Positions 2,737 through 13,422 of a stretch of 24,000 nt of DNA are shown here, in pieces. The first letter of the stretch is position 1. The number at the start of each line of letters is the position of its first letter. Origin of the DNA: Chloroflexota bacterium (GTDB lineage Bacteria > Chloroflexota > Dehalococcoidia > Lucifugimonadales > JACPCL1); contig JACQUH010000067.1 of the NCBI GenBank assembly GCA_016210375.1, positions 911 through 24,910 on the forward strand, given 5' to 3'. The position numbers and the translations under genes are program-made. The notes under the pieces are model-generated. The model was not told where the DNA came from. It worked only from the letters and a program-made list of their open reading frames with translations, and did not search any database.

Positions 2737-4407
2737 ATGGCATTCGTAAACAAGTGGCAACACCTCTCCTCCCGCGCGGCCAGCATTGCCAATACTAACC
2801 CCGTTGCCTTCTTCTACCTTTTCCGCTGGCTAACCTGGCTCCTGGCAGTAGCCATCGTCTTCACCCGTTCTGCCCCTTACGTAAACCTTAGATACGAGCC
2901 TGGGCTGCTGATGTACACTGCCTTCCAGCTAGCACTTGGACTTCTGTACGCAACTTCCCTCCGCTCACGGCTGAACCCAACGCCCGATGGGATTGGCCAG
3001 GAGCGTCCCTCCATAGACCCCCTGGTAGTTGGCGTAGCCGATATGATAGGCAGCCTCGTAATCCTCTTCTTCAGCGGCGGTCTGGGCACACCCTTCTTTC
3101 ACCTTGTTGTGACAAGCCTCCTCGTGCCCTGCTTCCTGTTGCCCACCCGGCGAGGCCTGGCCGTGGCTTTCCTATTTGGCGCGTGCTATGTGGTGGCAGT
3201 GTTCATGGCGGGGGAACTCTTGGGCGGGGCCGTTGGCCTCGGCCACGCCAGCTTCATTACCCAGGTGACCCGCGACGTCGCCTCAGTGCTGTTCATTGGG
3301 GGCGCCGTCGTGTATCTCGGCCATCTGTTCCGTACCCTTCAGGCTGAAAGGCGACGCACGAAGCAAGCCCTGGACGAGACCGAAATGCTATTCACCCTGA
3401 CCCAAGACCTGGTCCGCGGAGGCACAGAGATGGAGCCTCTGCTGATGCGCCTTGCCCAGGTAATGCGACGCACAGGGATCTTTGACCGGTGGGCGCTGTT
3501 CTTGGCGGCCTCTGACGGCAAGCTGGAGCTGGCTGCATCTACGGTTGGCATTGAAGAGGTCAACATGGTAGTGGTAGAGGAGACGATGAGGAAGGGCCGC
3601 ACGGCTACTGGCCCGGGGGCTACGGCAGGTCAGTGGCAGACAACAGTGCCTTTGAAAGTGGGCGAGGAAACGCTGGGAGTCATGGTGGCTGGCAACAGCG
3701 CCAGCAAGGCCACCAACGAGCTATCCCCACTGGCCGAGGCTGTGGCCGGTCAAATTGCGATTGGCCTCCAGAACGCAATCCTTGCCATTCAGAAGGCGGA
3801 CCTGGCAGCCCAAGAGGAGCGTAGTCGCATCGCCAGGGAGATTCATGACGGCGTCGCCCAGTCCATCTACATGCTGAGCCTTCACCTGGAGACATGTGCA
3901 GAACTGGCCTCCCAGGGCCGAAGCGATTTGCCTCAGCGGTTGGGCGGTCTGGTGAACCTCTCCAAGCAAGCGTTGCTGGAGGTGCGTCACTACATCTTTG
4001 ACTTGAAGCCTTACCTGGAGGGCGAACAGAGCGTGGCATCCATGCTAGCGAGCCAGGTTGGTGAGTTCACCAAGGTGTCGGGCGTGCCCGCGTCATTTGA
4101 GGTGAAAGGCGAGCCCCGTCCGCTGTCCATTCCCGCGGCTACCTGTTTGTACCGCGTGACTCAGGAGGCCTTGGCCAACGTCTTCCGCCATGCAAGGGCA
4201 TCGCAGGTGCGGGTGACGTTGGATTTCCTGCAAAGCGAAGCTCGTCTGACAGTGGCCGACAATGGCATCGGGCTTGACCTCACGAAAGCTGCGATGGGAA
4301 ACGGGCTAGGAAACATGCGACACCGAACCCAGGTATTGGGTGGGGATTTCCAGATTAGTGCCACCCCTGGGCAGGGAACAGGAATTAGTATTCATCTGCC
4401 CTGCTGA
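2737..4407 (+). CDS. Membrane sensor histidine kinase (N-terminal TM helices, GAF-like domain, HisKA_3 dimerisation/phosphoacceptor, HATPase_c)
   Basis: 556-aa ORF starting at ATG. H-box EERSRIAREIHDGVAQSIYMLSLHLE. ATPase motifs DNGIGL and GNGLGNMRHRTQVLGGDFQISATPGQGTGISIHLP. Hydrophobic N-terminal third. The middle region is GAF-like (VPLKVGEETLGVMVAGN). Confidence 0.9.
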   Translation: MAFVNKWQHLSSRAASIANTNPVAFFYLFRWLTWLLAVAIVFTRSAPYVNLRYEPGLLMYTAFQLALGLLYATSLRSRLNPTPDGIGQERPSIDPLVVGVADMIGSLVILFFSGGLGTPFFHLVVTSLLVPCFLLPTRRGLAVAFLFGACYVVAVFMAGELLGGAVGLGHASFITQVTRDVASVLFIGGAVVYLGHLFRTLQAERRRTKQALDETEMLFTLTQDLVRGGTEMEPLLMRLAQVMRRTGIFDRWALFLAASDGKLELAASTVGIEEVNMVVVEETMRKGRTATGPGATAGQWQTTVPLKVGEETLGVMVAGNSASKATNELSPLAEAVAGQIAIGLQNAILAIQKADLAAQEERSRIAREIHDGVAQSIYMLSLHLETCAELASQGRSDLPQRLGGLVNLSKQALLEVRHYIFDLKPYLEGEQSVASMLASQVGEFTKVSGVPASFEVKGEPRPLSIPAATCLYRVTQEALANVFRHARASQVRVTLDFLQSEARLTVADNGIGLDLTKAAMGNGLGNMRHRTQVLGGDFQISATPGQGTGISIHLPC

Positions 4408-4443
4408 GCCCAGTCTCGCGGCACAAGGCAATGGGAGGTTGAC

Positions 4444-5103
4444 ATGGCACGAACCAGAGTAATGGTCGTTGACGACCACGAGGTGGTACGGACGGGACTT
4501 GAGGCAATCCTGGGGGCTGAGGAGGACCTTGAGGTGATGGCTGAAGCCGGGACGGTCAACGAGGCCGTGCAGAAGGCCTCGCTCTTCGCCCCAGAGGTTA
4601 TCCTGATGGACGTGCGCCTGGGCGAGGGCAGCGGTATTGAAGCCTGTCGCGCTATTAAGAGCGAACGGCCAGCAACCCAAGTGCTCATGCTTACCTCTTT
4701 TGGCGACGAAGAGGCGGTGATGTCATCCATAATGGCGGGGGCGTCTGGGTATCTGCTCAAGAACGTTGGTAGGGCAGATCTGATACGCGCCATCAGAGCC
4801 GTAGCCAGGGGCCAGAACCTCCTGGACCCAGCCGTCACCAAACGGGTGATGGAACGCCTGACGCGCCTGGCAAACAAGGAAGAGGCGCAGGCACTGCAAG
4901 CCGTCTCCGCAAGGGAGAAGGACGTGCTGGTGCTGGTGGCCCAGGGGCTCACCAACAAGGAGATTGCTGCCAGATTGGTCATCAGCGAGAACACGGCCCG
5001 CAACCACGTGAGCCAATTGCTGGAAAAGCTGGGCCTCGCTAGACGCAGCGAAGCCGCCGCCTTCGCCGCTGAGCACGGCTTGCTGAGAAAAGAGCGACCT
5101 TAG
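4444..5103 (+). CDS. NarL/LuxR-family DNA-binding response regulator
   Basis: 219 aa. Receiver domain RVMVVDDHEVVRTGL ... ILMDVRLGEGSG. C-terminal LuxR HTH LSAREKDVLVLVAQGLTNKEIAARLVISENTARNHVSQLLEKLG. SD-like GGGAGG lies 5 nt upstream of the ATG, which is 36 nt after the kinase stop. Confidence 0.93.
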   Translation: MARTRVMVVDDHEVVRTGLEAILGAEEDLEVMAEAGTVNEAVQKASLFAPEVILMDVRLGEGSGIEACRAIKSERPATQVLMLTSFGDEEAVMSSIMAGASGYLLKNVGRADLIRAIRAVARGQNLLDPAVTKRVMERLTRLANKEEAQALQAVSAREKDVLVLVAQGLTNKEIAARLVISENTARNHVSQLLEKLGLARRSEAAAFAAEHGLLRKERP

Positions 5104-5265
5104 TCTACGTGTGGCGGCGGGGGTCTACCTCTCCCTAACGTTTTCGCCGCGCATCTGTACTACCAGAAATGGTACCGACCAACCAGCCGTATAGGGTACA
5201 TTCGTTCCTGGGGAGGGCCTCTCCCCTACTTTATCATGGCCTCACTGAACACACAGGAGGGGGCC

Positions 5266-5814
5266 GTGGAACAAGCGATAGCGGTACGGCGGCCTTCTTA
5301 CAGTAACATCAGCATGATTGCCACGGCTGCCGCGGCGGCGTTGGCCGTAGGAGCCGACCCATTCCTCTTTCGGCGGTTCGCCGACATTGACCCAGCGGTA
5401 GTCTCCACTCTGGGCAATCCATCGGTGTTCCTGGTCAACGTAATCGGCAGCTTGACACTGTTTCTGCCGATGCCCGGCCTGGCGGTGGTCTTCGCCGGCG
5501 GCAGCGCGCTGAATCCATTTGTAGTGGCGATTGTGGCAGCGCCAGGCATGGCCCTGGGCATGGTGGCGTGCTACCTATTGGGGGTATCTGGGTCGCCCCT
5601 GATCCAGAACCTGACGGCAAGCCAAGGTAACGTGGCGTCAAAGGTGGTAAGCAAGGTGCACACGTGGTTCCAGAGGTACGGCGTGTGGGCAGGGGCAATA
5701 CGGATGCCCCTATGGAAGTTCGCGGTGGGAACATTCCCGGGCAAAGTGGCGCAAACATCTGTGGTGGCCCTGGCGGGCACATATCTGGCGCTCGCTGTCC
5801 GGCTCGTGGCGTAA
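5266..5814 (+). CDS. TVP38/TMEM64 (DedA-superfamily, VTT-domain-like) integral membrane protein
   Basis: The motif region LFLPMPGLAVVFAGGSALNPFVVAIVAAPGMALGMVACYLLG resembles the VTT re-entrant segment, and the protein is hydrophobic throughout. The ORF is open from ATG 5236. However, GTG 5266 has AGGAGG (5255-5260) at 5-nt spacing while ATG 5236 has no SD, so the start is uncertain. The second half looks shorter than typical family members. Confidence 0.6.
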   Translation: MEQAIAVRRPSYSNISMIATAAAAALAVGADPFLFRRFADIDPAVVSTLGNPSVFLVNVIGSLTLFLPMPGLAVVFAGGSALNPFVVAIVAAPGMALGMVACYLLGVSGSPLIQNLTASQGNVASKVVSKVHTWFQRYGVWAGAIRMPLWKFAVGTFPGKVAQTSVVALAGTYLALAVRLVA

Positions 5815-5876
5815 CAGTAGTTTGTCCCCCAGCGCCATCTCTGGCATAGTGCTGTCGGTTTTGGGAGAGCAGAAGC

Positions 5877-8800
5877 ATGGCAGGCAAAGGAATAACGTTG
5901 CTGCGACTGGCTCTGATGGACTTTTCACGCAACAATTGCCCCTATGTGGCTGCTGGCATCGCCTTCTGGGCCTTGTTCTCCCTGTTTCCACTGGCCCTAG
6001 CGGCCATCTCTATCATGGCCTACCTGAACCCTGGGCCAGAAAAACAAGGCTGGATCCTGCAAGGCATCGTACAGGTGATACCTGTGTCTAGAGAATACCT
6101 GGCCCAGATCATTGAGGACGTTTCCCAGGCGAGGGGGACCCTGGGAGTGATAGCAGCCCTGGGCCTCATCTGGTCGGGCACCGCCGTCTTCTCCTCTGTG
6201 CGCAAGGGCGTCAACCACGCATGGCACATCGGCAAGCCGCCCTATTTTCTGCTGGAACGCGCCACAGATATGGTCATGCTCCTTGGGGTAGCAGTCCTGG
6301 CATTCAACATGGTTGCCTTCACCACCAACCTGCTGGGCCTCTCCACGATGGCCCAGGCCCCTAACTGGATAGGAGGTGGGCTCACAGGCAAAGTGTTCCT
6401 GGAGCTTGGTGCGGTGGCGATGACTTTTGGAGTGTTCTTGCTGCTCTACCGGTTCTTGCCCAACACCCATGTTGTATGGAAAGACGTTTGGCTTGGGGCA
6501 GCGGTGGGCGCAGTGCTTTCTCAAAGTATCAGGATCGGCTTCACGTGGTTTGTTGTGCATTTCGGCAGCTTCAACCTTGTGTATGGCGTCCTGGGTTCTC
6601 TAATGGCAGCGATGGTATGGGCCTATCTGACCTCCATTGCCATCATGTGGGGTGCGCAGGTGTGTTTTATCTACAGCCGGCTCTACGGTAGCCAGCAAGA
6701 CCTGGGCATTCCACCAGACCTCCAAGAGGCAACTATCGTCATTGTTCCTGACAGGAACGTAGGCGGCTTGCCAGGCGTGTTATTCACCTTGGGAAGCTGG
6801 CTCTTTCCAGCAAAGAAGAGACGGGGGATGCCGTCAAAAGCTGATGGGAGGCAAGCAATGGCAGACACGTTGGTGCAGTTCCTGCAAGAGGCCTCGGACA
6901 AGTTCGGCTCAAGGCCAGCCCTCTTCTTCAAACCTGCCTTTCGCTACAGGCAATGGAGCTACCGGCAACTGTGGGAGGAGTCCGGCAAGGTGGCAGCCCT
7001 CCTCCAGCAGCGGGGACTTCAGAAGGGAGACCGCGCCATCCTGTGGGCCTACAACTGCCCTCAGTGGGTGCTGGCCTTCTTCGGCTGCTTGCGGGCCGGC
7101 GTCATTGCCGTACCCATTGACCTGCGCAGCGCCCCAGAGTTCGTGACCAAGGTTGTTGCCAAGACACGCCCCAAACTGGCCTTCGTCTCCCGTTTGACGC
7201 CGCCAATGGAGCAGCGCATGGAGATGGAGTGCATCAGCGTTGAGGAGCTAGAAGGGCTGTGCGAGCATCTTCCGGCTCTCCAGGATGTGCCAGTGGCCAA
7301 GGACGACCTGGCAGAAATCATGTTCACATCGGGCACAACCGGTGACCCCAAGGGCGTGATGATCAGCCACTGGAACCTGCTCTCCAACCTGGAAGCCGCC
7401 AGCCAGTACATTCCCTGCAAGCCCTCCTACCGCCTCCTGTCGGTCTTGCCCCTGAGCCATATGTTTGAACAGATGGGTTGTCTTCTCATGGCCCTGAGCA
7501 ATGGCGCCAGCGTCACCTATCCGGCCAGCCGGCAGCCCTCTGTGCTATTCCGCACCATGCGCGAGCGCCGAATCACTACCATGCTCTTGGTGCCCCTGGC
7601 CCTGGACTTGTTCATGAAGGGTATAGAGCGGGAGGTGGAGCGACAGGGCAAGGAGCGACTGTGGAACGCCCTGCTAACGATGGCAAAGCGCACGCCCTTC
7701 CATCTGCGAAGAGTGCTCTTTCGGCGCATCCACAAGCAGTTCGGTGGCAAGCTGGAATTGGTTATATCAGGTGGCGCGGCCCTTGACCCGGAGCTTGGGG
7801 CCAAGTGGCAGCTACTAGGTGTCAAGGTCATCCAGGGCTACGGCGCAACCGAGGCGTCTCCCGTCATAAGCTGCCACAAGATGAGCGACCCCAGGTTTGA
7901 CTCCGTGGGGCTGCCGCTGCCTGGCGTAGACGTGAAGATTCAGGATGATGGCGAGATACTGGTGCGCGGCCCCAATGTCACCCGGGGCTACTGGGAAGCA
8001 CCCGAACAGTCCGCTGCTGCCTTCAAAGACGGCTGGTACAAGACTGGCGACCTGGGTTACTTTGACAAGGAAGGCTACCTGCACATCCAAGGCCGCAAGA
8101 AGGACATGATTGTCCTTGCGGACGGCCAGAACGTGTTCCCTGAGGACGTAGAGGCTGTGCTGTTGAAGCACACGGCAGTAACCGACGCCATCGTGGTGGG
8201 TCTCTCCAAGGGCAGTGACACCGAGGTTCACGCTGTCTTCATCCTCAAGGAGCCTTCCGAGGCGCCAGCGATCGTTACCTGGGCCAACAGCCGACTAGAG
8301 GAGCGTCAGCGCATACGGGGATGGTCACGGTGGCCAGGGGAGGACTTCCCGCGTACCCACACGCTGAAGGTCAAGAAGGGCGTGGTGCTGGACACCCTGC
8401 GAGGGGTTGCCCCTAGCAGCCCGGCGGCAATCTCTGGTACCCCCTCCACTAGCAGCACTCCCCGCGCCCTCACTCGGATTGTTGCTGACGTGGCCGGTGT
8501 AGCCCTGGGACAGGTAGCCGCCGAGAGGACCCTGGGCGGTGACCTGAACCTGGACTCCCTGAAGCGGGTGGAGCTATTGTCGGTGGTGGAAGAGGAGCTG
8601 GGGGCCTTTGTGGACGAAACCACCGTTGGACCAGATACAACCGTCGGGCAGCTCCAGGCGATGATAGGGGAGCAGGCAAACGCCCACACGGTGCAGAGCT
8701 TCCCTGGCTGGGGCATGAGCTGGTGGTGCCAGCCCTTGCGTGGGACAATCCAACGCGCCTTCATCTTCCCCATGGGCTTATGGCTGTACCGGTTGCGTGT

Positions 8801-9332
8801 TAGTGGACAGGAGCATCTGGATGGCGTCAAAGGCCCAGTGCTCTTTGCCGCGAACCACCACCTGGCGCTGGACAACGGCCTCATCATCAAGGCGATGCCC
8901 AACCCTTGGCGGCGCAGGCTGGCCATTGCCGCCGCCGCCGACCTTTGGGGCAACCCTGTTAACGCAGTGATGAATCCCCTTCTGGGCAATGGCTTCCCCT
9001 TCGCCAAGGATGGCCCCGTGCGCGCTAGCCTGGATAACCTGGGACGGATACTGGACAAGGGCTGGTCCGTGCTTCTTTACCCAGAGGGGGAACTGACCGT
9101 CGGTGGGCCTATGAAGCCCTTCAAGAGCGGTACTGGCCTCATTGGCGTGGAAGGAGGCATTCCTGTGGTGCCGCTGCACCTTCTCATCCATAGCCCCGGC
9201 AAGCCGGAGCCATTTCCCTTCCTACGGAGAGGGCACGTAGAGATACGCTTCGGCAAGCCCATTTTCTTCCAACCCGGGGCATCGTACCTGGAAGCTACCG
9301 CCGCTATTGAGGGGGCAGTGCACACTCTGTAG
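5877..9332 (+). CDS. Four-domain fusion protein: YihY/BrkB-type membrane domain + AMP-dependent acyl ligase + phosphopantetheine carrier domain + PlsC/LPLAT-type acyltransferase
   Basis: 1151-aa ORF.
- aa 1-~270: YihY/BrkB-like polytopic domain (CPYVAAGIAFWALFSLFPLALAAISI).
- aa ~328-800: adenylate-forming ligase motifs [12 protein letters not shown] (7323-7358), GYGATE, YKTGDLG, GRKKDMIV, PRTHTLKVKK.
- aa ~860-935: carrier domain GGDLNLDSLKRVELLSVVEEELG, with the Ser codon at 8556-8558.
- aa ~960-1151: acyltransferase with HX4D motif NHHLALD (8853-8873) and YPEGE.
SD-like GGAGAG lies 7 nt upstream of the ATG. Confidence 0.9.
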   Translation: MAGKGITLLRLALMDFSRNNCPYVAAGIAFWALFSLFPLALAAISIMAYLNPGPEKQGWILQGIVQVIPVSREYLAQIIEDVSQARGTLGVIAALGLIWSGTAVFSSVRKGVNHAWHIGKPPYFLLERATDMVMLLGVAVLAFNMVAFTTNLLGLSTMAQAPNWIGGGLTGKVFLELGAVAMTFGVFLLLYRFLPNTHVVWKDVWLGAAVGAVLSQSIRIGFTWFVVHFGSFNLVYGVLGSLMAAMVWAYLTSIAIMWGAQVCFIYSRLYGSQQDLGIPPDLQEATIVIVPDRNVGGLPGVLFTLGSWLFPAKKRRGMPSKADGRQAMADTLVQFLQEASDKFGSRPALFFKPAFRYRQWSYRQLWEESGKVAALLQQRGLQKGDRAILWAYNCPQWVLAFFGCLRAGVIAVPIDLRSAPEFVTKVVAKTRPKLAFVSRLTPPMEQRMEMECISVEELEGLCEHLPALQDVPVAKDDLAEIMFTSGTTGDPKGVMISHWNLLSNLEAASQYIPCKPSYRLLSVLPLSHMFEQMGCLLMALSNGASVTYPASRQPSVLFRTMRERRITTMLLVPLALDLFMKGIEREVERQGKERLWNALLTMAKRTPFHLRRVLFRRIHKQFGGKLELVISGGAALDPELGAKWQLLGVKVIQGYGATEASPVISCHKMSDPRFDSVGLPLPGVDVKIQDDGEILVRGPNVTRGYWEAPEQSAAAFKDGWYKTGDLGYFDKEGYLHIQGRKKDMIVLADGQNVFPEDVEAVLLKHTAVTDAIVVGLSKGSDTEVHAVFILKEPSEAPAIVTWANSRLEERQRIRGWSRWPGEDFPRTHTLKVKKGVVLDTLRGVAPSSPAAISGTPSTSSTPRALTRIVADVAGVALGQVAAERTLGGDLNLDSLKRVELLSVVEEELGAFVDETTVGPDTTVGQLQAMIGEQANAHTVQSFPGWGMSWWCQPLRGTIQRAFIFPMGLWLYRLRVSGQEHLDGVKGPVLFAANHHLALDNGLIIKAMPNPWRRRLAIAAAADLWGNPVNAVMNPLLGNGFPFAKDGPVRASLDNLGRILDKGWSVLLYPEGELTVGGPMKPFKSGTGLIGVEGGIPVVPLHLLIHSPGKPEPFPFLRRGHVEIRFGKPIFFQPGASYLEATAAIEGAVHTL

Positions 9333-9364
9333 ATATCGTAGAAATCTCAAGCAGGAGGTCATCC

Positions 9365-10513
9365 ATGCGTCTCTGGAAGCGCATCCTCATCGCTGTTCTA
9401 GCGGTTGTTGTGCTGGCCGCGGCTGGCGGCATTGCCGGCGGTGGCTGGTATCTCTCCGACATCCTCAAGAAAGACGCCCTGATGCCGAACCACAAGCCCT
9501 CCGACCTGGACATGCGGGTGATTGCAGTGGGAAACGGTCAAATCACTCTTGGGGTAACGCCCTCCACCAGCAACACCGCGCCTTGGAAGTACGACGGCGT
9601 GTGGGGTGTACGGTGGGACAGCGGCTATGGCCAGGCGGGGGCCATCAGCCAGCTTACTGAGCAGCAGGTGGTACGGCCCTTCACGGCCTTCAACGGCGAG
9701 TTGCACCCAGACGACATGGTGCGCCTGGAAGGGACAGCTTTCCCCAGCGACCCATATCAGGTTTTCGCCATACCCTTCCAGGAGGTGCGGTACACATCGC
9801 CCCTGGGGGAGTTCAAAGCGTGGTATGTGGAGGGCAAGGGCAGCACCTGGGTCATTACCGTGCATGGCCGCAACGCGCCTCTCAGGGAGGGGCTGCGCAT
9901 TCTGCCTACCATTGTGGGAATGGGGTATCCCGTCCTCATGATAGAGTACCGCAACGACGATGGCGCGCCGCCGAACCCGGACGGCCTTCTACGCTACGGC
10001 CAAGCGGAGTGGCAGGACATGGAAGGGGCCGTCGGCTATGCCCTCCAGCAAGGCGCTCACGATGTGGTGCTGGTTGGCTTCAGAATGGGCGGCGCAATCG
10101 TTGCCAACTTCCTCTACCAGTCCGCCCAAGCGGACAAAGTGCGAGGGGTCATCCTGGATGCGCCCATGATCAACTTCAACAAGACCATTGACCTGGGCGT
10201 GCAGCAACGGGGCTACCCTACGCTAGTCGCGGGCGTTGCCAAGGGGTTCTCTCAGCTCCGCTTTGGTGTGCCGTGGCGCAAGCTGGACTACCTGAAGCAC
10301 ACCGACCGCTTGAAGGCCCCCATCCTGCTCTTTCACGGTGACGCCGACCCAACTGTGCCCATTGCCACTAGCGACGCCCTGGCCAAGGCCCGTCCGGACA
10401 TCGTGCGGTACGTGCGCATGGAAGGAGCGCTGCACGTTGGCTCGTGGAACCGAGACCCGACAGCATACGAAGCCGCCGTGCAAACGTTCCTCCAGGACAT
10501 TGGCAAGGGCTAG
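9365..10513 (+). CDS. Membrane-anchored alpha/beta-fold hydrolase-like protein with nucleophile Ser replaced by Arg
   Basis: 382 aa. AGGAGG lies 7 nt upstream of the ATG. N-terminal TM helix ILIAVLAVVVLAAAGGIAGGGWYL. Fold motifs VITVHGRN, nucleophile elbow VLVGFRMGGA (expected G-x-S-x-G; codon AGA at 10082-10084), LLFHGDADPTVP and GALHVG. Confidence 0.8.
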   Translation: MRLWKRILIAVLAVVVLAAAGGIAGGGWYLSDILKKDALMPNHKPSDLDMRVIAVGNGQITLGVTPSTSNTAPWKYDGVWGVRWDSGYGQAGAISQLTEQQVVRPFTAFNGELHPDDMVRLEGTAFPSDPYQVFAIPFQEVRYTSPLGEFKAWYVEGKGSTWVITVHGRNAPLREGLRILPTIVGMGYPVLMIEYRNDDGAPPNPDGLLRYGQAEWQDMEGAVGYALQQGAHDVVLVGFRMGGAIVANFLYQSAQADKVRGVILDAPMINFNKTIDLGVQQRGYPTLVAGVAKGFSQLRFGVPWRKLDYLKHTDRLKAPILLFHGDADPTVPIATSDALAKARPDIVRYVRMEGALHVGSWNRDPTAYEAAVQTFLQDIGKG

Positions 10514-10866
10514 GGCCGCACCAGCGCCACAACCACCGCCACAACGTAGTTACCGTGGTGGCTGATGCTCAGATCAATGCTCAAGATATGGGATGCGTCG
10601 TACTCCGAAGCAAAGGCCAGGTAGGGCTTGCCTTCAGGCGTATGGCGCACCTCTACCACGTGCCAATTGCCCTTAGGTAGAGCCAGGGCCTTGAATACCG
10701 CTTCTTTGGCGGCACAGACGGCGGCAAGGCGCTCCGAGCTTGCCCCCTGCGCCTCTGAGGGATGAAACAGCCGCCGTCGGAATGCATCGCCTCCCGCCGT
10801 TAGGGAGCGTTGAAACTCCTCCAAGCTCACCAGGTCAATCCCTGTACGCACCTCTAGGTTTTCCAC
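10510..10866 (-). CDS. acpS: Holo-[acyl-carrier-protein] synthase (AcpS-type 4'-phosphopantetheinyl transferase)
   Basis: 118 aa from GTG 10866, with GGAGAGG 7 nt upstream. The motifs TGIDLVSLEEF ... RRLFHPSE ... LAAVCAAKEAVFKAL ... W..VEV ... GKPYL ... LSISHHGNYVVAVVV match the short AcpS pattern. Its stop overlaps the stop of the convergent hydrolase gene within CTAG at 10510-10513. Confidence 0.85.
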   Translation of the reverse strand: MENLEVRTGIDLVSLEEFQRSLTAGGDAFRRRLFHPSEAQGASSERLAAVCAAKEAVFKALALPKGNWHVVEVRHTPEGKPYLAFASEYDASHILSIDLSISHHGNYVVAVVVALVRP

Positions 10867-11074
10867 ATGGACACCTCTCCCCCGGCCCGCCGTAGCAAGG
10901 CATGTCTACGACAGGCGAAGCATGACAGCGCAATAGTACACCTACCACGAAAGGTTAGTAGGGATGTACCTCTTCCCTCGGTCCGTCACGGCCTAGCATG
11001 GAGGCATGGGACAAGCCCCGTTTATCCATAAGAGCTGGCGCACGGCATTTAAATGCCAAGTGGGGAGGCATTCC

Positions 11075-12000
11075 ATGAACACGCTTGTGGACCTGCTGAC
11101 AGACGCTCATAGCCGTTTTGGAGGCCGGACGGCCCTGGCGATGCGCCAGGGCTATCACACTCAGCGGTGGAGCTACCGTCGCCTGAAGGAGACATCGGGC
11201 CAAGCAACGGCGCGTCTTCAAGGACAGGCAGTGCGGACGGGCGACCGCATCATGATTTGGGCGCAAAACTCGCCCCAAGTGGTAGCCGTTTTCTTCGGAT
11301 GCCTCCGGGCGGGGCCATTGTTGTACCTCTGGACGTGCGTAGCACACGCGAGTTTGCAGCAAAGGTGGTAGACAGCACCAAACCCAAGCTAGCCTTCGTG
11401 TCGTCAGCCACGGCGGCGGAAACCAGGGGCTTGGGCTTGCCCCAAGTGGCGCTGGAAGAACTGCAAGCCTTCCTGGTTGATGCTGCACCCTTGGTTCAGG
11501 AAGTGAGTCTATTTTCTAGCGACATCGCTGAAATCATCTTCACCTCTGGCACAACCGGCGACCTGGGAGCAACAGACCAGGACGGCTTCCTCTACTCCCG
11601 GGGGAGGAAGAAGGACCTGATTGTGCTGGCCAGCGGTATGAACGTGTACCCGGAGGACATTGAAGCGCGCCTACGACGTCATCCGGCAGTGGCCGTCGCG
11701 GTGGTAGTTGGCCTGCCCAAGAGCGAGCAGGACGTGGAGGTGCGCCGCCTTGCTCTTGAATAACAAGGGGGCAATAGCCAAAACGGTCGTGGAGGAGGTC
11801 AACAGGGCGCTGGCCGACCACCAGCGGGTGCAAGGCTTGACGGTACGGCCGGACGAAGACTTCCCACGCACCAATACGCTGAAGGTCAAGAAGCAGGAGG
11901 TCATCCAACGCCTTATGCAGCTTCGTGCAGGGCAAGGTACTTCAGTGCCACCCGTTGATGCAATGCCTGAAGCCACGCCACTGTATCGCCTAGCGGCGCA
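11075..12000 (+). pseudogene. Decayed paralog of the acyl-ligase module of the 5877..9332 gene (two frameshifts, large internal deletion, carrier and acyltransferase parts missing)
   Basis: Three ORF-track fragments in three frames align colinearly with the intact ligase.
- [25 protein letters not shown]...VFFGCLRAG aligns with MADTLVQFLQEASDKFGSRPALFFKP...AFFGCLRAG.
- After a frameshift at G-run 11311-11314, [30 protein letters not shown] follows.
- FTSGTTGD is joined directly to [21 protein letters not shown] at about 11553-11567.
- A second frameshift lies near 11740-11745, with a stop at 11761-11763.
- Then comes ...DHQRVQGLTVRPDEDFPRTNTLKVKKQEVIQRL.
- Homology fades at about 12000.
GGGGAGG lies 6 nt upstream of ATG 11075. 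Confidence 0.8.
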
Positions 12001-12460
12001 GGTGGCCCCACGCCGCCGAAGGGGGCGTGATGCGCCGACAGCTTCCCGAAGGTCAAAGCACCTTAACCGCCTGGCTGTGGCGTTCCGTCAGGTGCCAGGA
12101 GTGCTGCGAGACGAGGTACGTCTATGCCGACTTGTGTTTCGTGCTAAGGTGGCGAAGTCCGTCGGGAAAGTGGATTTTTCGCTCTAAGCGCATCAAAAAG
12201 TCCGATAAAGTCCTTCCAAGAAGCTACCGTATCTTAAACGTCAAACCCGAAATCCGATGTACCTGTCCAGGCCGGAGCAGGCCGTCCAGGGCATGGCTCT
12301 TCTCTCGTCGTCCCTCCGAAGGGCTGTCGGCTCCGCCGCCTTGAAAATCCAGCCAGTAGCACCAAAGAGTGGATGCAAAAGACGGGCCTTCGGGGGGCGA
12401 CACGGGGGGATCGCTCTGCGATAATGGTAGGGTATTCATCGGAAAGAGGAAGGAGAAACG

Positions 12461-12817
12461 ATGGCAACCGAAGCGCCCCTGCGGGGGTTCTGTGCGATGG
12501 TCCATGAGGCGCTGCCGCCCCGAAACAGTGTTAAGTCGCAGGTGATCGCGACAGTCTGGAATCTTTCGGGCACGGATGGTGCGGTGAGCGCCGCCCAGGT
12601 GCATCGCTATCTACCACACCTGACCAGAGGTCAGGTGTCGGGCTGCCTCTCCCGTTGCCAGGCCGACGGGTGCCTTAACTCAAAGCGTGTCAAGATTCCA
12701 CCGGGCAACTTCGGGTTCGTATTCCGGCTGTCGGGGTATGGCCGTTCGTGGCTCACCTGGGCCATAGCGACGGGCTTGCTCACCCAGCAGGCCCCAGGGG
12801 AGGGAGAATCGCAATGA
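12461..12817 (+). CDS. Hypothetical small protein, possibly winged-helix DNA-binding
   Basis: 118-aa ORF with a strong SD (AGGAAGGAG) about 6 nt upstream of the ATG. Promoter-like GCGACA-17 nt-GATAAT lies upstream. The segment VSAAQVHRYLPHLTRGQVSGCLSRCQADGCL is reminiscent of a wHTH recognition region. I recognise no family with certainty. Confidence 0.45.
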   Translation: MATEAPLRGFCAMVHEALPPRNSVKSQVIATVWNLSGTDGAVSAAQVHRYLPHLTRGQVSGCLSRCQADGCLNSKRVKIPPGNFGFVFRLSGYGRSWLTWAIATGLLTQQAPGEGESQ

Positions 12818-13375
12818 CGCGCTTAGTGAAGCAAACCTGTAGCTGGCCCAAGTCGTCCATGACCCGAATAGACGGCTCGCCTATGCCCCCGCCGCGCATC
12901 TACCGTAGACCCAGGCCCAGCGTTCCCGCGCCTCCACCCGTGCCCCTGGCCCGTGCCCAGGCCCCTGAGCTAGGCCCCCGGCCGTGCAGCCTAGGGCGCG
13001 GGTAATTCGGCGGCAACGGCTTGCAGAACCGTCCCCGAACGTGCAGGAGGTCGTAGAGCAGGCTGACGTGGAAGAGCAGCTTATGACCGTTCAGGAGCCG
13101 CCCCAGGAGGCCGATGCGTCCCTGGCCGTATCTGCACTTGACGATAATGACGCCTCGCACAGCCCGCCTGACAAGGCGGCCCAGGCTGGGGGCCTCCCGC
13201 CTGGCCGGGAGCTTGCCCGTAGCTGGGGCATAGGAGGATGTTTGCTAACGGTTTGCTAACCAACTCAGCACGATTTCTTGGCACAGGACGGCACCACAGA
13301 TACAAAATGGGGGGTGTGGCCCTGGACGGTTATAGAACAGAACGTATCTGGCAGCATAGAACAACACATACGGCT

Positions 13376-13422
13376 AAGGTTTCCTAAACCGTTGGTCGGC
13401 GGTTCAAATCCGCCCAGGGGTA
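13376..13422 (+). other. tRNA-Arg(CCU)-like 3' fragment (anticodon arm to acceptor 3' strand); not an intact tRNA gene
   Basis: Canonical geometry is present:
- Anticodon arm AAGGT-TTCCTAA-ACCGT (13376-13392; one A/G mismatch; U33, anticodon CCT, A37).
- 5-nt variable loop TGGTC.
- T-arm GGCGG-TTCAAAT-CCGCC (13398-13414).
- Acceptor 3' strand CAGGGGT plus discriminator A.
The upstream 34 nt do not supply a pairing acceptor 5' strand (4/7) or a D-loop with GG. Confidence 0.5.

Follow-up and report, generated by a model that had tools for sequence, protein, structure and literature searches.

A YihY/BrkB membrane domain in one reading frame with a ligase-carrier-acyltransferase enzyme in a Chloroflexota genome: probably a recent fusion of two adjacent operon genes

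Domain composition of the fused open reading frame

The stretch of DNA analyzed here, hereafter the window, comprises 24,000 nucleotides (nt) of a Chloroflexota genome (GenBank assembly GCA_016210375.1, contig JACQUH010000067.1, positions 911 to 24,910 of the forward strand). Our subject is one gene in it, which encodes a protein of 1151 amino acids (aa). An earlier note, made from the letters of the window, had described a single uninterrupted open reading frame (ORF) joining a YihY/BrkB-like membrane domain to an adenylating ligase, a carrier domain of the acyl carrier protein (ACP) type and an acyltransferase. The frame and all four domains were recovered with Pfam and with the YihY family model of NCBIfam, and the motifs quoted for them, including the codon of the carrier serine, lie where they had been placed. 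On balance, we favor the interpretation that this ORF is a recent, genome-specific fusion of two adjacent operon genes by loss of a stop codon, neutral or degenerative and not adaptive. The features of the locus are collected in Table 1.

At the N-terminus, the Pfam profile Virul_fac_BrkB (PF03631) matches residues 18-267 with 163.7 bits (cut-off 33.7), covering positions 2-256 of its 259, and the YihY model TIGR00765 reaches 101.3 bits (cut-off 73.15). The enzyme part that follows contains AMP-binding (PF00501; residues 337-706, 276.5 bits), AMP-binding_C (residues 758-809; 19.7 bits, a weak match under its cut-off), PP-binding (PF00550; residues 864-926, 24.0 bits, cut-off 20.8) and Acyltransferase (PF01553; residues 972-1100, 45.1 bits, cut-off 23). 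A hydrophobic helix, at fusion residues ~951-971, precedes the acyltransferase domain.

Counted in residues of the fusion, one motif of the ligase lies at 483, GYGATE at 654, YKTGD at 721, GRKKD at 739 and PRTHTLKVKK at 825; LNLDSL, NHHLALD and YPEGE follow at 890, 993 and 1068. The ANL core motifs A3 (P-loop), A5, A7 and A8 and the A10 lysine are all present and invariant among 48 homologs, and the ligase can be assigned to the ANL enzymes. The HX4D dyad and the PEG(T/E) block are those of an LPLAT/AGPAT-type acyltransferase, and the serine of the D-S-L motif (Ser894, codon TCC at 8556-8558), together with the adjoining ACPS gene here and in relatives, points to a genuine carrier domain. Since the P-loop, the A10 lysine K831, the D-S-L serine, H994 and D999, and P-E-G (1069-1071) are invariant in an alignment of the enzyme part with 48 homologs and are present here, the catalytic machinery of the enzyme part looks intact.

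For the YihY part, a prediction of membrane topology, which the earlier note had proposed, was carried out on the basis of hydropathy and the positive-inside rule. It yields six transmembrane helices with both the N- and the C-terminus in the cytoplasm, and a positive-inside pattern is seen; the tail ends in KKRRG. Profile matches above the cut-offs over the whole domain and the number of helices both agree with the YihY/BrkB family; the difference from the other members found is a cytoplasmic extension of 834 residues. Because the C-terminus of the YihY part is predicted to be cytoplasmic, its fusion to the enzyme would be topologically permissible. The two halves were modeled separately with AlphaFold; a joint alignment misplaced the ligases (20% versus 60-74% identity to the query). 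The model of the YihY part is all-helical, with a predicted local distance difference test score (pLDDT) of 88 and a predicted template-modeling score (pTM) of 0.84; a fold search of this model against the PDB gave no meaningful match (best E 0.13, template-modeling score at most 0.23), and the family fold appears to be without a solved representative. The model of the ligase-ACP-acyltransferase half is of moderate quality (pLDDT 73, pTM 0.59).

Table 1. Coordinates of the fused ORF, its parts and its neighbors in the window.
Feature	Position	Strand	Basis or remark
Fused ORF, 1151 aa, YihY + ligase-ACP-acyltransferase	5877..9332	+	ATG start, frame unbroken
yihY-equivalent part, residues 1-317, ends ...FPAKKRRG	5877..6827	+	Pfam, TIGR00765, homologs
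G5 homopolymer just before the junction	6823..6827	+	read from sequence
Ten-codon in-frame linker MPSKADGRQA, at former intergenic or MBL-gene position	6828..6857	+	no counterpart in relatives
Out-of-frame TGA	6842..6844	+	read from sequence
Shine-Dalgarno GGGAGG, 6 nt before ATG 6858	6846..6851	+	
Ligase-ACP-acyltransferase gene-equivalent, 824 aa, starts MADTLVQFL	6858..9332	+	homolog starts
ANL N-terminal domain (A3, A5, start of A6)	6885..7994	+	Pfam, motifs, alignment
A7 YKTGD and A8 GRKKD, between ANL N-terminal domain and C-terminal subdomain	8037-8051 and 8091-8105	+	motifs
ANL C-terminal subdomain	8148..8303	+	weak Pfam match
A10 lysine K831	8367-8369	+	downstream of the ANL C-terminal subdomain span
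Carrier (PP-binding) domain, predicted phosphopantetheine serine Ser894	8466..8654	+	Pfam, alignment
LPLAT/AGPAT-type acyltransferase domain, H994-x4-D999, YPEGE 1068	8790..9176	+	Pfam, motifs
HisKA_3 histidine kinase (with GAF domain) and NarL/LuxR-type response regulator	2737..5103	+	upstream in 4/4 genus members
DedA/VTT-domain membrane protein	5236..5814	+	conserved upstream neighbor
Membrane-anchored alpha/beta hydrolase (N-terminal transmembrane anchor)	9365..10513	+	conserved downstream neighbor
ACPS-type phosphopantetheinyl transferase	10510..10866	-	conserved neighbor
Pseudogene of a second ligase-ACP-acyltransferase paralog	11075..12043	+	comparison with relatives

Separate genes in the relatives

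The earlier note had implied an evolved four-domain architecture. This does not agree with the gene structure of the relatives: in each one examined (loci L001, L002, L038 and L096; same-genus genomes G301, G302 and G303), yihY (313-318 aa) and the enzyme gene (about 825-845 aa) are separate, and in the window the ligase part keeps a Shine-Dalgarno sequence and an ATG of its own. The nearest enzyme homologs on contigs, with 74% and 70% identity, come from two of the three further genomes of the genus; there, a yihY of 316-317 aa stops 14-88 nt before the enzyme ATG. The third genome, G302, encodes an enzyme 76% identical to that of the window, and its gene order is histidine kinase - response regulator - dedA - yihY - hydrolase of the metallo-beta-lactamase (MBL) fold - enzyme - alpha/beta hydrolase - acpS (opposite strand) - methyltransferase - second enzyme paralog. 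The core of this order, from yihY through MBL, enzyme and hydrolase to acpS, is also found in the more distant metagenomic loci L038 and L096, the latter with an insertion sequence (IS) element inserted. In G302, L038 and L096, yihY and the ligase gene are separated by the MBL gene. In L094, a contig of 3.5 kb, MBL follows yihY and no ligase gene is found downstream on that contig. In G302, L038 and L094, the stop codon of yihY overlaps the MBL start codon or directly adjoins it (ATGA / TAATG).

Over its full length, the YihY part is 68-76% identical to free-standing YihY proteins of 316-318 aa, the closest of which (76%) is a free protein of 316 aa, with MBL as the next gene downstream. The YihY proteins of the relatives stop 4-5 residues past a W-L-(L/F)-P-P motif, the tails being PPRRDGR, PPKKKHT, PPRKRQP and PPKRSQ, and the enzymes start with MPETLVQFL, MSETLVQFL or MAETLVQFL.

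Anatomy of the junction

In the window, the YihY tail reads ...SWLFPAKKRRG, and there is no stop where the relatives have one. The frame runs on through the linker codons ATG CCG TCA AAA GCT GAT GGG AGG CAA GCA into ATG GCA GAC ACG, the beginning of the ligase part, and the peptide across the boundary is ...RRGMPSKADGRQAMADTLVQ... In the relatives, the Shine-Dalgarno sequence before the free-standing ligase gene is AGGAGG or AGGAG, located 7 nt (G302, L001) or 8 nt (L002) upstream of the ATG, a spacing close to the 6 nt of the window. The out-of-frame TGA within the linker is likely the relic stop of yihY or of a deleted MBL gene.

Given this TGA and the run of five G immediately before the linker, a single base separates the fused from the separate state: with six G at 6823-6827, YihY would end ...RRGDAVKS-TGA, and the Shine-Dalgarno sequence and ATG of the ligase would come next. 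Ten random GC-rich codons would be free of stops more often than not; the fusion can therefore be explained without selection.

Distribution of the architecture

The protein searches covered a database of 5.8 billion protein clusters. With residues 1-320 as query and hits limited to proteins of 633-2014 aa, only the protein of the window itself was returned. The best 120 matches to the whole protein all have 781-860 aa and contain AMP-binding and Acyltransferase, most of them also PP-binding, and PF03631 is absent from all of these 120; the named proteins among them come from Chloroflexota metagenome-assembled genomes (MAGs). Within the phylum, the enzyme is strongly matched in 76 of the 301 sampled genomes, at full length in about 45 of these, and no other open frame longer than 1100 aa covers such a match among these 76 genomes. 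The four-domain architecture is thus a singleton, confined to one genome. The three-domain ligase-ACP-acyltransferase core, by contrast, is common, being found in about a quarter of the sampled genomes of the phylum.

The fusion to YihY, which the earlier note could not match to any characterized protein, accordingly has no second example in the database. The search for the domain architecture that the note had suggested has a divided outcome: the four-domain form occurs here only, whereas the three-domain core is widespread and has already been noted in the literature (PMC9131029, PMC8460268, PMC12820801).

Lesions in the surrounding locus

Two genes of the G302 locus, those for the MBL hydrolase and for the methyltransferase (PF12147), are absent from the window locus; the methyltransferase gene precedes the second enzyme paralog in the relatives. 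This second paralog has become a pseudogene with two frame changes, in which residues ~163-388 and ~559-846 are missing. In the alpha/beta hydrolase, the position of the nucleophile is occupied by Arg (AGA, 10082-10084; GFRMG), whereas four relatives have Ser in G-[FYI]-S-M-G; the hydrolase of the window is thus likely catalytically dead. Judged from these sequence features, the locus is decaying, and because it carries several other lesions, the loss of the yihY stop fits relaxed constraint better than a designed architecture.

In the same-genus locus L001, the second ligase paralog (11139-13416) consists of two overlapping ORFs of 301 and 475 aa; it is broken, or mis-assembled, there too.

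Real fusion or assembly artifact

A further question is whether the junction exists in the organism. The earlier note had raised the possibility that separate genes were joined artificially at one of three places. For the two inner junctions this concern can be set aside: they are continuous in the ~120 listed homologs and hence natural. It persists for the junction between YihY and the ligase (6828-6857), which is peculiar to this genome. According to the corresponding alternative, the true genome has G6 or another stop-bearing variant at 6823-6827, and the ligase starts separately at 6858. We consider such an assembly or consensus artifact unlikely, and the arguments on its side deserve to be stated together with the other points that weigh against our interpretation. 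One added G would produce a textbook layout of stop, Shine-Dalgarno sequence and ATG; conversely, undercalling a true G6 by one base would yield exactly the present sequence. The window comes from a fragmented MAG (345 contigs; completeness 84.6%, contamination 3.9%), the architecture has no second example, and a G run also marks the site of the window's other frame break. Error-made fusions of a similar gene pair exist on low-coverage contigs: P0169, a 'YihY-MBL fusion', lies on a contig of 2x coverage with fragmented MBL and ligase genes and was evidently made by error, such fusions arising easily as artifacts. An independent assembly carrying the junction was not found, since an exact search for the junction pattern, with up to four bases added to the G run, had no match in metagenome_contigs or genome_contigs. 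Concerning the history of the fusion, the nearest relative is ~76% identical, and the mutational path (indel or substitution, before or after the MBL deletion) cannot be reconstructed from it. Concerning its function, the enzyme mechanism proposed below would follow from the domain families, and it is proposed for a three-domain clade that has no characterized member in the literature examined.

The frequency of frame errors in this genome nevertheless argues against the artifact. In an indel check, 400 kb of G302, from the same genus, supplied 210 long ORFs, and their comparison with the complete genome to which the window belongs gave 126 orthologue-grade matches with 48,125 aligned residues. 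Besides two ambiguous cases, a clear colinear frame change was found only in the ligase pseudogene within the window; the other partial matches were mostly due to contig ends or to over-long ORF calls in G302, and a few are unexplained. Outside the window, the unbroken alignments amount to 136 kb with 408 G/C runs of at least five, implying a per-run error rate well below 1%. Because no clear frameshift occurs across this orthologous coding sequence, an undercall at exactly the spot of the junction seems improbable. Moreover, a repaired YihY tail would exceed that of every relative by five residues, and the locus has independent, genuine lesions: the large deletions in the paralog, the lost MBL and methyltransferase genes and the change from Ser to Arg cannot be sequencing indels. 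Altogether, we are rather confident that the fusion is real, be it neutral or adaptive.

On a metagenome contig of 2x coverage (L095), a 453-aa 'YihY-MBL fusion' is encoded at 6335-7696, and its neighbors are a 90-aa MBL fragment, a 742-aa ligase without the acyltransferase domain and a 113-aa fragment. This fusion and the fragments look like the result of indel errors, a caution for surveys of domain architectures.

Origin of the fusion

The fusion by stop loss that we favor would have arisen in few steps. The ancestral order would have been dedA - yihY - MBL-fold hydrolase - ligase-ACP-acyltransferase - alpha/beta hydrolase - acpS, the last gene on the opposite strand. Deletion of the MBL gene in the lineage of the window would have brought yihY next to the ligase gene; the yihY stop would then have been lost, for which a one-base change in the G5 run is the simplest route, and ten leftover codons in frame with the ligase ATG would have produced the single frame of 1151 aa. 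Because the enzyme part retains its Shine-Dalgarno sequence and ATG, the free 824-aa enzyme is probably still made alongside the fusion.

As an alternative, the protein could be an adaptive four-domain enzyme, in which the acyl-activating and acyl-transferring part is tethered to a YihY translocator for direct hand-over of lyso-lipid or fatty acid. Such an arrangement would have parallels, given that natural single ORFs of LplT and Aas are reported (PMC11416262) and that MprF couples a flippase with a lipid-modifying domain (PMC11980842). It would also be compatible with the predicted topology, with two intact halves and with the conservation of yihY as operon partner, both in the clade whose ligases share at least 63% identity and in a second family. 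We nonetheless regard it as improbable, because the fusion occurs in one genome only, its linker is leftover intergenic sequence with the internal Shine-Dalgarno sequence and ATG kept, genes and catalytic residues are being lost around it, and lipid transport by YihY lacks support, its fold having no solved homolog.

Hence, the protein is probably a singleton gene-fusion variant of a known but uncharacterized enzyme family, real but accidental. The four-domain protein itself is of little weight, coming from one fragmented MAG and having a probably accidental origin. It serves rather as a pointer to a conserved, uncharacterized Chloroflexota cluster around a self-contained ligase-ACP-acyltransferase, and as a worked example of how the deletion of an intervening gene and the loss of a stop codon can generate a multi-domain 'architecture' that surveys would count as novel.

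Comparison with known systems

In Escherichia coli Aas, a 2-acyl-GPE acyltransferase/acyl-ACP synthetase, the acyltransferase is N-terminal, the acyl-ACP synthetase is C-terminal, and free ACP is used. The window protein resembles Aas in combining ATP-dependent activation of fatty acids with an HX4D acyltransferase and in being coupled to a polytopic membrane protein encoded in the same operon. The order of the domains is reversed, as had been recognized before, and the ACP is built in instead of being supplied in trans. The transporter LplT forms a complex with Aas, and in some bacteria the two are joined in one ORF (PMC11416262). The membrane partner here is YihY or DedA and not a member of the MFS; against the LplT-Aas family model PRK08633, the protein scores 189.4 bits (cut-off 1221), with a match limited to the ligase part, and it does not belong to that family. 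Among the systems worked out, LplT/Aas is still the closest functional parallel, by analogy with its re-acylation of lyso-lipids. An MFS gene is situated beside the homolog L039; a link to LplT through this gene was rejected, the MFS protein not being LplT-like. PRK04214 in NCBIfam is a different fusion family of YihY with an unknown domain.

In ElbD, the ether-lipid enzyme of Myxococcus xanthus, a FAR1-like reductase forms the N-terminus, and ACS, ACP and AGPAT-like domains come after it (review PMC9131029). The resemblance to ElbD that had been proposed holds for the ligase - ACP - AGPAT-like block, which by the described architecture has the same order within one polypeptide; it does not hold for the order given in the earlier note, which had the reductase between ACP and AGPAT. 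The window protein has no Pfam match to a reductase, in agreement with the earlier note, or to an NAD-binding domain, and its N-terminal YihY part has no counterpart in ElbD. Neighbors of the elbB/elbE type were not seen; the partners at the locus and in its relatives are MBL hydrolase, alpha/beta hydrolase, ACPS, DedA and YihY. ElbD-like proteins without the FAR domain, which the three-domain core matches, are reported from other phyla, with no lipid data (PMC9131029).

Fusions of FAAL-like domains with LPLAT have been described as an uncharacterized 'unique domain organisation' (PMC8460268, eLife 2021; PMC12820801, Protein Sci 2026). Like the protein considered here, they join an LPLAT/AGPAT domain to an adenylating domain from which a carrier receives the acyl group. 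We rejected an assignment of the ligase to the FAALs, because its best PDB matches are acyl-CoA synthetases of the FadD13, feruloyl-CoA, malonyl-CoA and MenE types. Among the 60 PDB chains listed, the one FAAL that we recognized is 3kxw ('Saframycin Mx1 synthetase B'), which we take to be from Legionella; it matches weakly and over residues 32-219, in the N-terminal part, only (E 2.7e-27). The motif spacing, with A5, A6 and A7 in the ordinary arrangement, would leave no room for a FAAL-specific insertion. By these comparisons, the ligase domain stands closer to the acyl-CoA synthetases than to the FAALs. The window protein is consequently not a member of Aas, of LplT-Aas, of ElbD proper or of the FAALs.

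Proposed function of the enzyme and its partners

If its domains work as the chemistry of their families suggests, the ANL domain would adenylate a free fatty acid, and the acyl group would be loaded onto the phosphopantetheine arm of the enzyme's own carrier, primed by the neighboring ACPS. From there, the HX4D acyltransferase, which the preceding helix would keep at the membrane, would pass it to a lyso-lipid or glycerol-phosphate acceptor. By analogy with Aas, the core most likely acts in salvage or re-acylation, with an ACP of its own built in. YihY and DedA may be accessory membrane proteins of the operon and, more speculatively, lipid translocators; since DedA proteins are documented as lipid flippases (PMC10127716, PMC10193950), such a role of the membrane partners is plausible.

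A bolder 'Rosetta stone' reading would take the fusion as a sign that the widespread YihY proteins are in general translocators of lipids, lyso-lipids or fatty acids coupled to an acyl-activating and acyl-transferring enzyme. The operon, consisting of two-component system, DedA, YihY, MBL, ligase-ACP-LPLAT, exo-facing hydrolase and phosphopantetheinyl transferase, would then be a Chloroflexota counterpart of LplT/Aas in membrane repair. We hold this reading to be doubtful at best; the fusion does hint, weakly but in a testable manner, at a joint action of the YihY/BrkB family and membrane-lipid acylation.

Genomic neighborhood of the enzyme family

YihY was also considered as a universal partner of the enzyme and was rejected as such: it is found nearby in only 2 of 20 phylum-wide loci with flanks of 8 kb, and the linkage of YihY and enzyme is confined to the clade of the window, in which ligase identity is at least 63%, and one other family. 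The most faithful neighbor across the phylum is the MBL-fold (Lactamase_B) hydrolase, present co-directionally upstream or divergently in 12 of these 20 loci. An MBL neighbor was noted in the loci L011-L025, L029-L030, L040, L044-L049, L075-L081, L085-L086 and L092-L093. This suggests that MBL and ligase-ACP-acyltransferase form a functional module of two genes, in which, as a guess, the MBL-fold hydrolase could be a thioesterase or lipid hydrolase.

At the window locus itself, the ACPS-type transferase presumably primes the carrier in cis, and the two-component pair upstream suggests control by envelope stress. A scan of 5050-11100 for promoters and terminators found sites no more numerous than in shuffled sequence. 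In the same bin, a contig of 2,964 bp (C26) encodes an intact MBL-fold hydrolase at 857-1576, followed by a paralog of the alpha/beta hydrolase at 1676-2806 that is 66% identical and keeps the catalytic Ser, with no ligase gene between the two. Its GC content is 65%, versus 62.6% for the contig of the window, and it could represent a second locus or a co-binned strain.

In the locus L038, the cluster dedA-yihY-MBL-ligase-hydrolase-acpS is flanked by inverted copies of an IS3-type element (HTH_Tnp_1 and rve) at 3047-4137 on the minus strand and 11279-12369 on the plus strand. The arrangement resembles a composite transposon and hints at mobility of the cluster.

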